A stretch of 64,000 bases of DNA, taken from positions 13,028 to 77,027 of the forward strand of contig DEIG01000001.1 in the NCBI GenBank assembly GCA_002352345.1. Direction: 5' to 3'. The stretch's first letter is position 1, and each line of letters opens with the position of its first letter. This document shows, in pieces, positions 28,244 through 35,678 of the stretch. Position numbers and translations under genes: made by a program. The notes below the pieces were generated by a model. That model was not told the DNA's origin and ran no database searches. It saw only the letters and a program-made list of their open reading frames with translations. This stretch comes from Methylococcaceae bacterium UBA2780 (GTDB lineage: Bacteria > Pseudomonadota > Gammaproteobacteria > Methylococcales > UBA2780).

Positions 28244-28995
28244 AAGTAACCACCATTGCAGGCCGTGAGCTACGTAGCCTTTTCCTCTCGCCTCTCGCCT
28301 GGACGATTCTTGGCGTCACGCAGCTGATCCTAGCCTATCTTTTTCTTTCTCAAATCGATTATTATCTAACGATTCAACCTAAAATTGCCGGTATCGAAGG
28401 AGCTCCAGGTGTCACCGATCTCGTTATTGCTCCGCTCTTTGCTAATGCAGCGGTCATCCTCCTACTGATCACCCCGCTTCTAACGATGCGTTTAATCAGC
28501 GAGGAGCGACGCAACCAAACCCTCAGCCTGCTCTTTTCAGCACCGCTCTCAATGGCCGAAATTATCCTCGGAAAATATCTCGGCATTATGGCGTTTATGC
28601 TGATAATGATTGGGCTAATTGTGCTGATGCCACTTTCACTCATGGCTGGCGCAACACTCGACTATGGCAAATTAGCTTCAGGCGTTATTGCTTTAGTGCT
28701 CCTAATGGGCGCTTTCTCGGCGGTCGGCCTCTATATGTCAGCGGTTGCCAGCCAACCTACCGTTGCCGCAATTGGAAGTTTTGGGCTACTGCTTTTACTT
28801 TGGATTCTAGACTGGGCAGGAAGCAATTCTGATAAAGGCAGCGAACTGTTTGCCAGCCTCTCTCTACTTCACCACTTTGAAAATCTACTCAAAGGGCTGA
28901 TCCACTCCGCCGACATCGCCTACTACCTGCTCTTTATCATTCTCTTCCTGACACTCACTGTTCGCCGTCTCGATAATGACCGTTTACAAAAATGA
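28240..28995 (+). CDS. ABC-2 type transporter permease (GldF-like)
   Basis: 251 aa with about 6 TM segments; 4-nt overlap with the ATPase gene. Confidence 0.8.
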   Translation: MKVTTIAGRELRSLFLSPLAWTILGVTQLILAYLFLSQIDYYLTIQPKIAGIEGAPGVTDLVIAPLFANAAVILLLITPLLTMRLISEERRNQTLSLLFSAPLSMAEIILGKYLGIMAFMLIMIGLIVLMPLSLMAGATLDYGKLASGVIALVLLMGAFSAVGLYMSAVASQPTVAAIGSFGLLLLLWILDWAGSNSDKGSELFASLSLLHHFENLLKGLIHSADIAYYLLFIILFLTLTVRRLDNDRLQK

Positions 28996-30368
28996 GAATT
29001 AATAAAACGCGCCATCGGGCCATTCGCCTACAGAACCAGATCTTCACGATCCTTTTTTTAATCGTTATTGCACTTTTAGGCTGGCTAAGTAACCGCTATA
29101 CCACTCAGTTTGATTGGACTAATGGCGGACGCAATTCTCTTTCAGAGACAAGCCAACGCGTTGTTGAGCAGATGGGTGGAAAAATTAAAATCACCGCCTT
29201 TGCTTTTGAAGACAAAGTGACTCATACGCAAATTAGTGATCTTATCGGGCGCTATCAGCACCATAAAAAAGAGATCAAGCTCACATTCGTTAATCCAGAT
29301 AAACAGCCGGAAAAAGTTCGGCAGCTCGGCATCACCAACAATGGGGAGCTTCTCATAGAATTTAATGGCAAAAGTGAGAAGATTAAGACAGCCACCGAAA
29401 CACTCCTAACCAATGCACTTCAGCGCTTAAACAGAGCTGAAAAACGCTGGGTAGCCTTTCTGACTGGACACGGAGAACGCAACCCATTTGGGCAGGCAAA
29501 TCACGACTTTGAAGCATTTGGGCAGACCTTAGCAAGCAAGGGCATTTCGGTTCAGATCATTAACCTAATCGAAACCGCAGCAGTCCCTGCAAACAGCTCC
29601 TTGCTGGTTATTACCTCTCCTCAAGTCGCGCTACTTGATGGCGAGGTGGCACTTATTGAAGAGTATATAGAACAAGGTGGAAATCTCCTCTGGCTTCAAG
29701 ACCCTGGTGACCTGCAAGGCCTTTACCCACTAGCTGAACAGCTAGGGATTGAGTTTCTACCCGGAACTATTGTTGATGCTTCAACACAGCTACTGGGAAT
29801 AGACGACCCATCATTTGCACTAGTCAGCCGCTACTCTATACATCCCATCACAAAAGAGTTTCAGTCACTAACACTTTTCCCCGTCGCATCAGCAATCGCA
29901 AAAGAAGAGGGTGAATCTGGCTTCCAAGCTCAAGCGATTCTCAGCACGCTTGAGCGCTCATGGACAGAAACCAGTCCACGTGAAGGTGAAATACAATTTG
30001 ACTCTGATAGCGAAGAGACACGTGGCCCTCTTGACCTCGGATTTGCATTAACTCGAACTGTTGGTGAAAAACCAGCGGATGACGATCAGCCCGCAAAAGA
30101 GCAACGCATCATTGTGATTGGAGATGGCGACTTTCTCTCCAATAGCTACATTGGCAACGGCGCCAACCTTGATCTTGGCCTCAATATTGTCCAATGGCTG
30201 AATGAAGATGACCAGCTTCTTAATATTCCAGCCCGAACCGCCCCAGATCTTTCTCTCAATCTCTCCGAAACCAGCTCTGCAATTATCGGCATTGGCTTCC
30301 TGATTGTTCTGCCTGCACTCCTTATTGGAAGTGGTTTCACCATCTGGTTCAAAAGGCGTAGAAGATGA
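28992..30368 (+). CDS. GldG-family ABC-transporter-associated protein
   Basis: 458 aa with N- and C-terminal TM anchors and a large periplasmic domain. Its position after the ABC-2 permease, with a 4-nt overlap, fits the GldG-like architecture. Confidence 0.7.
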   Translation: MRINKTRHRAIRLQNQIFTILFLIVIALLGWLSNRYTTQFDWTNGGRNSLSETSQRVVEQMGGKIKITAFAFEDKVTHTQISDLIGRYQHHKKEIKLTFVNPDKQPEKVRQLGITNNGELLIEFNGKSEKIKTATETLLTNALQRLNRAEKRWVAFLTGHGERNPFGQANHDFEAFGQTLASKGISVQIINLIETAAVPANSSLLVITSPQVALLDGEVALIEEYIEQGGNLLWLQDPGDLQGLYPLAEQLGIEFLPGTIVDASTQLLGIDDPSFALVSRYSIHPITKEFQSLTLFPVASAIAKEEGESGFQAQAILSTLERSWTETSPREGEIQFDSDSEETRGPLDLGFALTRTVGEKPADDDQPAKEQRIIVIGDGDFLSNSYIGNGANLDLGLNIVQWLNEDDQLLNIPARTAPDLSLNLSETSSAIIGIGFLIVLPALLIGSGFTIWFKRRRR

Positions 30369-30880
30369 GATCCCGCCTCATTACCAACCTAGTATTGCTA
30401 GCTATCGTTATCGTATTGATAATGGTGACACTAACCGAGCTAAAGCCTAAAAAAATAGCGCCAGCACCTATCAGTCAACTTAACACCCAAACTGTTTCTA
30501 ACATTGAACTAGCAAGAGTGAGTAAGCCTCTTATCCGTTTTAGCAAGCAGGATGGAATCTGGCATATGGCCTCTCCCCAAAAAGGGTTAGCGAACCCAAT
30601 AAAAATCAAAAAACTACTCGCCATTGCAGAGATTGATTCAAGCTCGCACTTCCCTCTAAATGCCGAAGAGGCAGACCGTTTTGGCTTAAAAAACCCGGCA
30701 ATTACCCTTAAATTAGATCAATTAACAATTGTAGTTGGCACCATTGCCCCCATTAGCCAACAACGTTATCTAGGGATTAATGGAACCCTTTATCTTGTTG
30801 CCGATAATTTCTATCACCACCTTATTGCGCAGCTAGAACAGTACCTCGAACAGCCTATACCAGAAGCCTCTACGCCATAA
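30365..30880 (+). CDS. DUF4340-like membrane-anchored protein
   Basis: N-terminal TM (LITNLVLLAIVIVLIMV), 171 aa, and the usual position after a GldG-like gene; 4-nt overlap. Confidence 0.55.
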   Translation: MRSRLITNLVLLAIVIVLIMVTLTELKPKKIAPAPISQLNTQTVSNIELARVSKPLIRFSKQDGIWHMASPQKGLANPIKIKKLLAIAEIDSSSHFPLNAEEADRFGLKNPAITLKLDQLTIVVGTIAPISQQRYLGINGTLYLVADNFYHHLIAQLEQYLEQPIPEASTP

Positions 30881-31920: not shown

Positions 31921-32026
31921 TTCGGAAGCCTCTTACTTATTTTGGGAAGTCCAAGCCAACCATTATAGCATTTTCCCCCCTATTCCGATACATTACCCCT
32001 TACTAAAAGCCATCATGGATGACTGA

Positions 32027-32761
32027 GTGATCGCCATTAAAAGCCACTTTCTAAAACAGTTAATTAGCAGCTGCCTAGACCTATTCCCGATTCTGGCAGT
32101 CATCTCTATTTTTCAACTCTTTGTCATTCAACAGCCTATTCCTAATGTGGCTGAAATGCTCTTCGGTACCCTGCTAATCGTTCTCGGTTTAACCCTCTTC
32201 ATACAAGGATTGGAACTCGGCCTTTTCCCCATTGGTGAAGCGATGGCCTATGCCTTTGCAAAAAAAGGTAGCGTTACTTGGCTGCTCACCTTCGCCTTTT
32301 CACTAGGTTTTGCAACGACCGTCGCCGAACCGGCACTTATCGCCGTCGCAGATGAGGCGGCGCGCGTTGTTGCTGCTGGAGGGATTATTGAAGCAACCGA
32401 AGAATCGCAGCAAAGTTATGCTTTCGGCCTTAGGATGACGGTCGCCTTCTCCGTCGGCTTTGCCATTTTAATCGGCGTTCTTAGAATCCTTCGTGGCTGG
32501 CCCCTGCACTACCTGATCATATCGGGGTATATTGTGATTGTCGCCATGACCCCTTTTGCACCGGCAGAAATTATTGGCATTGCTTACGACTCCGGCGGTG
32601 TCACCACCTCAACCATCACCGTTCCATTGGTTACGGCTTTAGGTGTTGGTCTGGCCTCTGCCATTAAAGGACGAAACCCAATGCTTGATGGCTTTGGTCT
32701 TATCGCCTTCGCCTCTTTAACTCCGATGATCTTTGTTATGGTCTATGGGATGCTCCTATGA
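32027..32761 (+). CDS. DUF1538-family polytopic membrane protein (paralogue 1)
   Basis: 244 aa, GTG start, multiple TM segments. Motifs [68 protein letters not shown]. Confidence 0.8.
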
Positions 32762-33528
32762 GCGCTTGGTTTCTAGAGTTTGGGAACACATTACTTCTAA
32801 CCATTCGGGATATCCTCCCTATTCTGGCAACGATTATTGGTTTTCAGTTATTGGTTATCCGGAAGCCACTGAAAAACCCAAAAAAAATAGCAATTGGTTT
32901 CCTGTATGTTCTATTGGGTATCGCTTTTTTCCTAGAGGGGCTGGAGATGGCGCTATTTCCACTCGGTAAGCTAATGGCAACCCAACTAACAGACCCCAAT
33001 TTTATTGGCAGCAGCTCTGACGTTGTCCGTTGGCAAGATTATTACTGGGTCTATCTATTTGCCGCCTGTATCGGTTTTGCAACCACACTGGCCGAACCCT
33101 CATTGATAGCTGTAGCGATCAAGGCAGAGGAAATTTCTGGGGGCGCGATCGGTGCATGGGGACTCAGACTAGCCGTCTCTGTCGGTGTCGCATTTGGCAT
33201 TTCTCTTGGAACATACCGGATTGTCACAGGGACAGAGCTCTATCTTTACATTGTTGCAGGCTATGTCGTTGTTATCGTACAGACCATTTTCGCCCCAAAA
33301 ATGATTATCGGTCTCGCCTACGATTCCGGAGGTGTCACCACTTCGACCGTCACCGTGCCACTTGTAGCCGCACTTGGACTTGGGCTTGCATCAACCGTTC
33401 CCGGCCGGAACCCAATGCTCGACGGGTTTGGCCTGATTGCATTTGCCAGCCTGTTCCCCATTATTGCCGTACTCAGTTATGCACAAATCGCTGAATGGCG
33501 AAACCAAACAAACTCTAAGATTACCTAA
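32758..33528 (+). CDS. DUF1538-family polytopic membrane protein (paralogue 2)
   Basis: 256 aa with the same motif set ([68 protein letters not shown]). ATGA overlap with paralogue 1. Confidence 0.8.
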
Positions 33529-33543
33529 AATGAGGCTCTATTC

Positions 33544-33894
33544 ATGCATTTCAAATTAATTATTGTTTTTGTCGAAGATGACAAAACCGACCTCGTACTC
33601 GACACCTCTCGTGAACACGGTGCAACTGGTGCTACCGTTATAAATAACGCGCGTGGTGAAGGCGTTAAAAAATCCAAAACATTTTTTGGATTAAATCTTG
33701 AAAGCCAACGAGATGTTATTTTGCTTCTAGTTGAAGAGCACATGTCGAGAACAATTCTTGAAGAGATTGCCAAAGTTGCCGAGTTTGATGCAAAACCAGG
33801 AACCGGCATCGCACTCCAGATCGATGTAGAAGATGCCATTGGGGTTCTTCATCAGATGGAAACACTTACACCAGCCGTTGAGGAGGAGTTATGA
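33544..33894 (+). CDS. PII-like (GlnB-fold) signal transduction protein
   Basis: 116 aa. KLIIVFVEDDKTDLVLDTSREHGATGATVINNARGEG...VILLLVEE...PGTGIALQIDVEDAIGV aligns with the beta-alpha-beta pattern, T-loop position and GxG B-loop of GlnB. Confidence 0.7.
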   Translation: MHFKLIIVFVEDDKTDLVLDTSREHGATGATVINNARGEGVKKSKTFFGLNLESQRDVILLLVEEHMSRTILEEIAKVAEFDAKPGTGIALQIDVEDAIGVLHQMETLTPAVEEEL

Positions 33895-34295
33895 AAAACC
33901 AGAAAATTATTCGCGTTCGCGATGTTATGAAAACAGATTTCGGAATGATCGATGGTGTTGCCACCATCAGCGAAGCGGTAAAGACGATGAAAGAGCAAAA
34001 GACTTCCGTTTTAATCGTCAACAAGCGGCATGATGATGACGAGTACGGGATAATTTTAGCCGGAGATATCGCCCGCCACGTCCTTGCTAAAGACCGCTCA
34101 CCAGAACGTGTCAACGTCTATGAAATCATGGCAAAGCCGATTATCTCAATGAATCCAGAGATGGATATCCGTTACTGCTCAAGAATGTTTGCTCGTTATA
34201 ATTTGGTTCGTGCACCTGTTCTTGAAAACCGTACAGTTATCGGCACTGTAAGCCCAATCTCTCTTGTGCTCGATGGGCTATACAATATCTGCTAG
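33891..34295 (+). CDS. CBS-pair domain protein
   Basis: 134 aa with two CBS motifs (VRDVMKTDFGMIDGVATISEAV...GIILAGDIARHV and VYEIMAKPIISMNPEMDI...IGTVSPISLV). ATGA overlap with the PII-like gene. Confidence 0.8.
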   Translation: MKNQKIIRVRDVMKTDFGMIDGVATISEAVKTMKEQKTSVLIVNKRHDDDEYGIILAGDIARHVLAKDRSPERVNVYEIMAKPIISMNPEMDIRYCSRMFARYNLVRAPVLENRTVIGTVSPISLVLDGLYNIC

Positions 34296-35063: not shown

Positions 35064-35678
35064 TTATAATTCCATCATTGCCATCGAGCTACGGCAACGC
35101 TGCACGTTCGTATACATAAGTTCTGCTGCCTTATCCACACTTTCCGCAACAGTTAAGAGGCTTTGTAAAAACTCACCCGCCTGTGACGCTTCAATTCGTG
35201 AGTTCGCGGCAATCACCCTCGCCGCACGGGCTGGATGCATAATTTCGGAAAGCTGATCTAACAAGCGATCCACTTGGCTTTTAAGCTGATGGCGCTTCTC
35301 TCCCAATTCATCTTCTATCCGTCCAGCAATCGGAAAAAGAGAGTCAACATATGCTGCATCACTTCCAAGCTCCAGTACCGCCTTGAACTGCCTGTTAGCT
35401 TCTTCATGCCGGTGCTCACTAACCGTTGTCTCGTACAATTCAGATGCCTGCTCATTAATCTGATTAACCAGCCCTATTGTCTCTCTAGCAAGCTCGTTAA
35501 TAAAATCGGTAATCGGTTGAAAGCCCCTCGCTTTCTCCCCCGCACGATAGGCAATTGCTTTAGCATTAGCTGCTGCAAGTGAAATTTCCTTAGCAACCAC
35601 CATCACATCTGAAAGCTCAGTTGCAATCGATGCTACGGAAACAAACTGGGATTTCTTTCGCTCGGTATTTGTTTTCAT
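35064..35678 (-). CDS. Minimal soluble MCP-signalling-domain (chemoreceptor hairpin-tip-like) protein
   Basis: 204 aa with no TM. SLAAANAKAIAYRAGEKARGFQPITDFINELARET aligns with the conserved MCP tip [33 protein letters not shown]. The rest is predicted helical with heptad character. Confidence 0.6.
   Translation of the reverse strand: MKTNTERKKSQFVSVASIATELSDVMVVAKEISLAAANAKAIAYRAGEKARGFQPITDFINELARETIGLVNQINEQASELYETTVSEHRHEEANRQFKAVLELGSDAAYVDSLFPIAGRIEDELGEKRHQLKSQVDRLLDQLSEIMHPARAARVIAANSRIEASQAGEFLQSLLTVAESVDKAAELMYTNVQRCRSSMAMMEL

Follow-up and report, generated by a model that had tools for sequence, protein, structure and literature searches.

What do two paralogous membrane proteins, a PII-like protein, and a stand-alone CBS pair do when they are encoded together in one short gene cluster? 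The question arises from a 64,000-nucleotide (nt) stretch of the Methylococcaceae bacterium UBA2780 genome, hereafter the window (GenBank assembly GCA_002352345.1, contig DEIG01000001.1, positions 13,028 to 77,027 of the forward strand), in which positions 32027-34295 hold such a cluster. The original prediction, made from the letters alone, took it for a channel or transporter under the control of two soluble sensors. The answer favored here, with a probability of about 0.6, is a monovalent-cation/proton antiporter of the UmpAB type, encoded at this locus along with two cytoplasmic sensor subunits dedicated to it; the T-loop of the PII-like protein together with the CBS protein would gate the transporter.

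The cluster lies on the plus strand. It begins with an umpA-like gene for DUF1538 membrane subunit A (32027..32761; 244 amino acids (aa), GTG start), followed by an umpB-like gene for DUF1538 membrane subunit B (32758..33528; 256 aa), a gene for a PII-like protein that is a putative T-loop regulator of UmpAB (33544..33894; 116 aa), and a gene for a stand-alone CBS pair, or Bateman module, that is a putative AMP or adenylate sensor (33891..34295; 134 aa). Reading the sequence confirmed the four open reading frames, their coordinates, and their strand, as well as the spacing first described: umpA and umpB overlap by ATGA at 32758-32761, the PII-like and CBS genes overlap by ATGA at 33891-33894, and a 15-nt spacer at 33529-33543, which contains a GAGG Shine-Dalgarno-like site, separates umpB from the PII-like gene. 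Hidden Markov model searches agreed with the proposed families, with Pfam DUF1538 in both membrane proteins, P-II in the third protein, and a CBS pair in the fourth, all above cut-off or significant. Proteins identical to those of the window exist in public sources, from an uncultured gammaproteobacterial metagenome-assembled genome (MAG), and their nearest named relatives belong to the Methylococcales. The public labels for such proteins are 'DUF1538 domain-containing protein' and 'nitrogen regulatory protein PII'.

The two membrane proteins are paralogs; the peptide blocks originally quoted as shared are present in both, and the window UmpA and UmpB chains are 51% identical. Subunit A matches Pfam DUF1538 (PF07556) over profile positions 1-211 of 211 (E 4.4e-69; 232.4 bits vs cut-off 22.6), and subunit B matches it over positions 1-210 of 211 (E 5.7e-68; 228.8 bits vs cut-off 22.6). 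The NCBIfam models tell the subunits apart. The top match of subunit A is UmpA (NF041627), at full length and 379.9 bits, with only 182 bits for the UmpB model, and the top match of subunit B is UmpB (NF041628), at full length and 338.2 bits, with 211 bits for the model of the other subunit. On the UmpA model, the window protein scores 380 bits, compared with 195-334 bits for 10 other family representatives. The window pair is 74-75% identical to the pair of a Methyloglobulus sp. MAG (L003), and an exhaustive profile search of 1.84 billion representative proteins returned 3,727 DUF1538 representatives. A single-sequence search of structures gave no solved relative of a membrane subunit at E<=1, and the DUF1538 profile gave chance matches only against solved structures.

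The original prediction supposed that DUF1538 proteins had no experimentally assigned function, and it named an existing biochemical characterization as grounds for abandoning that view. Such a characterization exists. Meng et al. 2017 (PMC5484666) showed the DUF1538 pair UmpAB of Halomonas zhaodongensis to be a heteromeric Na+(Li+,K+)/H+ antiporter, and the NCBIfam UmpA and UmpB models derive from that work. The antiporter-deficient Escherichia coli strain KNabc is rescued only by umpA and umpB together, UmpA and UmpB co-immunoprecipitate, and UmpAB carries out pH-dependent Na+, Li+, and K+/H+ antiport in everted vesicles (PMC5484666). Seven helices are predicted in each subunit (PMC5484666). 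Homologs from Methyloglobulus morosus and Methylosarcina lacus fall within the UmpA and UmpB clades, in the group with >50% identity; identities and bootstrap values are 54-93% and 96 for the UmpA clade and 52-90% and 99 for the UmpB clade (PMC5484666). The idea of an undescribed transport system with an unreadable substrate thus gives way to a known antiporter family, with UmpA and UmpB as the best NCBIfam matches of the window proteins.

The window pair is here treated as orthologous to UmpAB on sequence grounds. Its clade placement runs via the Methylococcales homologs of the published tree, with the Halomonas sequences themselves outside the comparison. In both systems the DUF1538 paralogs are adjacent and overlapping, and the gene arrangement matches the published description: the shorter A precedes the longer B, which has a hydrophilic, basic C-terminal tail. 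Subunit A has a longer loop past helix III and subunit B past helix II, Methylococcales homologs fall in the same clade, and the window NCBIfam matches occur in A-B order. The two systems differ in that only umpA and umpB were cloned and assayed from Halomonas, whereas the window pair is half of a conserved four-gene module; P-II and CBS proteins appear nowhere in the paper, and neither does an opposite topology of A and B (PMC5484666). Since Halomonas UmpAB is active in E. coli without PII-like or CBS proteins, these would be modulators and not core subunits. By homology to that one heterologous study, the substrate in the window organism is probably Na+, Li+, or K+.

The four genes are conserved as a block. 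A genome survey seeded with the membrane subunit covered the 80 closest loci, of which 70 were informative in that they had >=2.3 kb of downstream sequence. The order UmpA-UmpB-PII-CBS on one strand was found in 66/70; three loci lack the CBS gene only, and one is disrupted. These loci come from Gammaproteobacteria (Methylococcales, Cycloclasticus, Colwellia, Thalassotalea, Sedimenticola, Beggiatoaceae, and Hahella), Nitrospirota, Desulfobacterota including cable bacteria, and Gallionellaceae. Another UmpA-like protein served as seed for an independent survey of 80 metagenome loci, which represents a second clade. Of its 38 informative loci, 36 have all four genes in the same order, and the PII-like protein there is only ~46% identical to that of the window. 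Pooled, the two samples show the synteny in 102/108 informative loci, which is far beyond chance. A reverse search from PII-like proteins recovered the same block in 3/3 look-ups, covering 5 loci. No conserved fifth gene was found across the 80 genome loci, and because the flanks vary, the four genes behave as an autonomous module. The co-occurrence of two DUF1538 genes, a PII-like gene, and a CBS gene on which the original prediction depended is therefore borne out in genomes and metagenomes alike.

Candidate additional members of the module were rejected. The nadC-like and ampD-like flanks are local chromosome context. A thioredoxin gene starts 20-70 nt past the CBS gene in L024, L067, and L096-L098, which form a small clade including Thiohalomonadales MAGs; it recalls the CBS-CP12/TrxA cluster, but it occurs in only 2/80 surveyed loci and in three PII-seeded loci. 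Two further loci stand out for other reasons. In Candidatus Parabeggiatoa (L013 5289-9998), a lone UmpA gene precedes a gene for a 1236-aa repeat-rich protein, which indicates a disrupted locus or a misassembly. In a Nitrospirales MAG, a c-di-GMP-I-GGC riboswitch (L018 8636-8712; 72 bits vs gathering 59) lies ~370 nt downstream of the CBS gene and presumably controls the next gene, outside the module.

The association with P-II extends to distant relatives of the membrane pair. In a plasmid collection, DUF1538 genes 30-35% identical to those of the window are directly followed by a gene annotated as P-II family in 5/5 records inspected. Vescimonas, Paraclostridium, and Peptoclostridium have a fused 500-aa DUF1538 gene and then a tandem double P-II gene of 222-224 aa (L081 5021-5695; L082 4210-4878; L084 4111-4779), while Methylocystis and Chelativorans have split A and B genes and then a single P-II protein of 112-122 aa. 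A CBS gene is present at 0/5 of these distant loci, and the association with P-II predates the one with CBS. The double P-II of Clostridia may replace the PII and CBS pair of the window's clade. The second sensor varies by lineage. The window's clade has a CBS pair in this place and Clostridia a second P-II domain; the two alphaproteobacterial loci have none, and in Arcobacteraceae RCK proteins are encoded close by. Such differences suggest that the P-II core is constant and that the nucleotide-sensing layer upon it is modular.

In some bacteria the P-II protein and the transporter are a single polypeptide. Protein P0242 (659 aa) carries two DUF1538 domains and, C-terminal to them, a P-II domain, and this architecture, at 650-670 aa, occurs in at least 120 distinct clusters whose named sources are Campylobacterota/Arcobacteraceae. 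The fusion is strong evidence that P-II works in physical contact with the transporter. Among 43 long DUF1538 representatives (>=540 aa), a P-II domain is recognizable in one and a cytidylate-kinase-like domain in another, so the P-II fusion is lineage-specific and not general. Together, the cross-phylum synteny, the distant P-II adjacency, and the DUF1538-DUF1538-P-II fusion uphold the proposal that the genes form one module and that the soluble proteins are very probably dedicated partners of the membrane pair.

Other long family members have different architectures. The metagenomic protein P0243 (724 aa) combines two DUF1538 domains with a cytidylate-kinase-like/AAA domain, which is another nucleotide-binding module. 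The remaining 41/43 long representatives, of about 550-800 aa, form a large separate clade of double-DUF1538 fusions with a ~130-aa linker between the halves and an insertion in the second half, and neither the linker nor the insertion has a Pfam family match.

The neighbors of these genes point to monovalent cations. In 2/3 sampled fusion lineages, the fusion gene lies directly downstream, on the same strand, of K+ channel and RCK genes; in these Arcobacteraceae/Campylobacterota loci (L086-L089, L092), the neighbors encode a K+ channel (Ion_trans_2 with TrkA_N/C) and a 234-aa TrkA_N/C protein. The third fusion lineage (L093) is without K+ channel and TrkA_N/C neighbors. Its fusion gene is followed by a thioredoxin gene (L093 5982-6317). 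A KefB/KefC-like CPA2 K+/H+ antiporter with an RCK domain adjoins the four-gene cluster in 7/80 genome loci; one example is the minus-strand gene L028 8085-10073 of Thiomicrorhabdus, at a locus that also lacks the CBS gene. The K+ channel/RCK and KefC-like contexts fit monovalent-cation homeostasis.

The 116-aa protein is a PII-like protein in a subfamily of its own. It matches Pfam P-II (PF00543) with E 1e-9 and 39.1 bits (cut-off 25). Its AlphaFold2 monomer model has a mean predicted local distance difference test score (pLDDT) of 82.6 and the b-a-b-b-a-b topology, with strands at residues 3-11, 29-36, 56-64, and 88-94, helices at 12-24 and 65-78, and an extra C-terminal helix at 95-115. Residues 37-55, at the T-loop position, form a low-confidence, poorly ordered loop. 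Foldseek places Thiomonas CPII first, followed by TTHA0516, SbtB, and GlnK1, all with probability 1.00 and ~20% identity. By sequence the distance is greater: no solved relative was found at E<=1 in a single-sequence PDB search, and the family profile reaches E of only ~0.1 against PDB GlnB and GlnK sequences.

The original prediction gave the 116-aa protein a GlnB-like beta-alpha-beta pattern. Its PII fold is confirmed, and it lacks the canonical PII signatures. Two PROSITE-type patterns, Y-[KR]-G-[AS]-[AE]-Y for the T-loop and [ST]-x3-G-[DY]-G-[KR]-[IV]-[FW]-[LIVM] for the C-terminal part, are absent from the window protein and from all 75 orthologs (0/75); both are present in the E. coli GlnB control. 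The T-loop is ~4 residues shorter than that of canonical PII. The mean top-residue frequency across the 75 orthologs is 0.78 in the T-loop, 0.79-0.84 in the strands, and 0.64-0.72 in the helices. The T-loop is thus as conserved as the strands, as expected of an interaction surface. The label 'nitrogen regulatory protein PII' is probably misleading or wrong for this subfamily.

Comparison with characterized PII systems defines what the window protein shares with them. As in GlnK-AmtB, a PII-fold protein is encoded beside a transporter and has a conserved T-loop as its likely plug or latch. Unlike in GlnK-AmtB, the transporter family is unrelated to AmtB, no nitrogen genes lie near the window cluster, and the PII-like protein lacks Tyr51 and the uridylylation motif, the G-D-G-K B-loop, and R101/R103, in addition to having the shorter T-loop. 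The proteins of the SbtB-SbtA and CPII-DAB systems are its nearest structural neighbors, if only at ~20% identity; SbtB and CPII are non-canonical PII-like adenylate binders dedicated to a co-encoded inorganic-carbon transporter. The window protein differs from them in that its partner is DUF1538 and not SbtA or DabAB, and in that it has an extra CBS partner. The hallmark of SbtB is an sbtA neighbor and a C-terminal redox CGPxGC extension. The neighbors of the window gene are DUF1538 genes and not sbtA, and the protein ends in LTPAVEEEL without a cysteine, so it has no redox motif of the SbtB type.

The fourth protein matches Pfam CBS in two stretches (E 8.3e-14), which make up a CBS pair. Its nearest solved relative by far is the CBS module of CBS-CP12 (5nmu), with E 8.5e-27 and 40% identity over 120 ungapped residues. 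The Microcystis CBS-CP12 module binds AMP and not ADP, ATP, or cAMP, and the isolated module is a dimer that retains AMP binding (5nmu). The match spans only residues 4-123 of the 208-residue CBS-CP12, and the window protein stops at residue 134. Like CBS-CP12 and the plant CBSX stand-alone CBS pairs, the window protein contains a CBS pair; unlike CBS-CP12, it has no CP12 domain, so it is not a CBS-CP12 and hexamer formation is not expected. CBS-CP12 acts on a soluble enzyme, phosphoribulokinase (5nmu), whereas the target of the window protein is presumably the membrane transporter or the PII-like protein. It is reasonable to suppose from this similarity that the window CBS pair senses AMP.

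The membrane subunits themselves show opposite charge biases. Lys and Arg residues were counted per loop in aligned sets of 77 UmpA and 71 UmpB orthologs, with the score taken as odd minus even regions. UmpA has its Lys and Arg excess at the N-terminus and in the loops after helices 2, 4, and 6 (sum +5.2, sign kept in 97%), and UmpB has it in the loops after helices 1 and 5 and in the C-terminal tail (sum -5.6, sign kept in 99%). With seven helices in each subunit, the opposite biases predict that UmpA has its N-terminus inside and its C-terminus outside, and that UmpB has the reverse orientation. This implies that UmpA and UmpB would pair in antiparallel fashion as a heterodimer, the counterpart of the inverted repeats found within single-chain secondary transporters. 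Two features of natural fusions are consistent with an antiparallel pair: a short non-hydrophobic linker joins the halves of A-B fusions, and the cytoplasmic P-II domain is fused at the C-terminus of the B half. Each subunit also has two predicted broken-helix motifs, GF[GA]TTxAEP and YDSGGVTTS.

Antiparallel, or inverted-topology, paired membrane proteins include the EmrE-type small multidrug resistance (SMR) pairs and the Fluc/CrcB pairs. The window pair shares with these adjacent homologous genes and an opposite positive-inside bias, and its family is also fused elsewhere. It differs in that UmpA and UmpB are much larger, with seven predicted helices each, and in that their topology is a prediction.

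These features can be assembled into a mechanism. UmpA and UmpB, as homologous seven-helix subunits in opposite orientations, would build an inverted-repeat core for the exchange of H+ against Na+, Li+, or K+. Like all PII proteins, the PII-like protein would presumably be a trimer; it would bind UmpAB from the cytoplasmic side, close to the basic tail at the C-terminus of UmpB, and its T-loop would gate the transporter depending on which ligand, most likely an adenine nucleotide, is bound. A second input, probably AMP, would come from the translationally coupled CBS pair, such that cation/proton exchange follows the cellular energy state. By analogy with GlnK-AmtB and SbtB-SbtA, both soluble proteins would most simply be inhibitors under a particular energy state, and inhibition is the direction of regulation assumed here.

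A more detailed architecture is tentative and may well be wrong. In it, A and B are the halves of an inverted-repeat transporter with an experimentally unseen fold, and a trimer of such heterodimers is capped by the PII-like trimer, with the T-loops and an AMP-sensing CBS dimer gating transport. If true, the capped trimer would add to AmtB-GlnK and SbtA-SbtB a third PII-transporter paradigm with a structure independent of both.

Several points weigh against a sensor-controlled cation/proton antiporter at this locus. The window proteins miss the NCBIfam equivalog cut-offs (UmpA 379.9 vs 490 bits; UmpB 338.2 vs 500 bits), so they need not be functionally identical to Halomonas UmpAB. The substrate of the whole family is assigned from one heterologous study in E. 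coli KNabc and everted vesicles. The B-loop of the PII-like protein reads G-T-G-I-A, compared with the canonical G-D-G-K-I, the canonical ATP and 2-oxoglutarate contacts are not conserved, and the protein lacks equivalents of R101/R103 and the Tyr51 motif. UmpAB is called a heterodimer, whereas known PII-transporter complexes are trimer on trimer (2023 review). No cation or cyclic di-AMP (c-di-AMP) riboswitch was found upstream of the cluster in the window or in 14 diverse loci. The natural fusion was also modeled with AlphaFold2, but pLDDT is <50 in its linker and P-II loops, and no docking geometry is drawn from the model.

The missed cut-offs and the single heterologous study also favor the view that the DUF1538 pair physiologically moves another solute, such as bicarbonate, another anion, or a small metabolite, with Na+/H+ antiport in KNabc as a side activity and the PII-like and CBS proteins still in their gating role. 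The membrane fold has no solved relative to constrain the substrate, the structural neighbors of the PII-like protein are the carbon-related CPII and SbtB, and many hosts are autotrophs or methanotrophs (Methylococcales, Thiomicrorhabdus, Sedimenticola, Beggiatoaceae, Nitrospirota, Gallionellaceae, and cable bacteria). The Foldseek likeness to CPII and SbtB, however, reflects a PII fold common to GlnK and not a substrate, and the cluster is also found in the marine heterotrophs Colwellia, Thalassotalea, Hahella, and Aliikangiella. Vesicle assays show Na+, Li+, and K+/H+ antiport in a member of the same clade (PMC5484666), and the recurring neighbors are K+ channels/RCK and KefC-like antiporters, not carboxysome, RuBisCO, or nitrogen genes. 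A different physiological solute is therefore unlikely, though it deserves to be kept in mind. The guess of the original prediction that the substrate is inorganic carbon or nitrogen fares no better: it lacks contextual support and is dropped as the leading idea, as the contexts (K+ channel/RCK, and KefC-like in 7/80) point to monovalent cations.

It is also conceivable that the membrane pair serves mainly as a sensor or anchor, from which the PII-like and CBS proteins, sequestered or released by ion or energy status, act on other cytoplasmic targets. Membrane sequestration belongs to the biology of GlnK and SbtB, the nearest CBS relative acts on a soluble enzyme, and a small clade has a thioredoxin gene next after the CBS gene. 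PII proteins are typically multi-target (2023 review). Yet the Campylobacterota P-II domain is covalently fused to the transporter and cannot leave it, and the survey found no conserved fifth gene that could encode a soluble target, the thioredoxin being present in only 2/80 loci; a sensor or anchor role is quite improbable. The last alternative, that the PII-like and CBS genes are unrelated passengers sharing an operon with umpAB, draws on the activity of Halomonas UmpAB in E. coli without them and on the lack of an experimental link. The fusion and the synteny come close to refuting it already, and its probability is negligible: the order is kept in 102/108 loci while the flanks vary, P-II remains adjacent at 30-35% identity, start and stop codons overlap, and a gene fusion exists. 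A cation/proton antiporter with dedicated sensor subunits remains the preferred explanation of the locus.

Genes of the opposite orientation flank the cluster in the window. A 106-nt intergenic region (31921..32026, plus strand) lies between a divergent DUF2788 gene and umpA, and is the presumed promoter and 5' untranslated region; a simple scan of it found no sigma-70-like site, and no Rfam riboswitch was found in it at E<=1. On the 3' side, a convergent gene for an ODP-type metallo-beta-lactamase ends 5 nt past the CBS stop. This gene, from 34301 onward on the minus strand, encodes a 244-aa ODP-family (oxygen-binding di-iron type) protein of the metallo-beta-lactamase fold (Pfam ODP E 7e-73). 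Its neighbor at 35064-35678, also on the minus strand, encodes a 204-aa soluble protein with a sub-threshold match to the methyl-accepting chemotaxis protein (MCP) signalling domain (24 bits vs cut-off 34.6), and the two proteins may form a small sensor-receptor pair. Further upstream, positions 28992-30880, upstream of fpg, hold the apparent last two genes of a four-gene ABC-type cluster. In the locus whose proteins are identical to those of the window (L090), the order is ATPase, ABC-2 permease, 458-aa ABC_transp_aux/DUF4350 protein, and 171-aa DUF4340-like protein.

The membrane pair is already known, as is PII-like control of a transporter as a type of mechanism. The PII-regulated transporters tabulated in a 2023 review are AmtB, Amt1, NrtABCD, UrtABCDE, and SbtA. 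A link of PII or CBS proteins to UmpAB is absent from the UmpAB paper (PMC5484666), from later papers that cite UmpAB, and from the 2023 PII review, and a search of full-text literature, whose coverage excludes most subscription journals, found no paper linking DUF1538/UmpAB with PII-like and CBS proteins. What appears to be new is the combination of PII-like and CBS proteins with UmpAB, in which they are probably energy-sensing accessory regulators.

Few signal processors are as widespread as PII and PII-like proteins, yet their established transporter targets number only a handful. If PII-like and CBS proteins are dedicated to a cation/proton antiporter, the reach of PII control would widen from the uptake of nitrogen and carbon to the homeostasis of ions and pH. 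The antiparallel A and B subunits, with natural A-B and A-B-PII fusions, are a useful case for the evolution of inverted-repeat transporters. The module is found in methanotrophs, sulfur oxidizers, cable bacteria, nitrite oxidizers, and marine heterotrophs, and it is a compact, easily cloned test system. UmpAB is already cited in the literature as a salinity adaptation; if the proposed regulation is true, ion and pH homeostasis would be coupled to energy charge in many marine and sediment bacteria.

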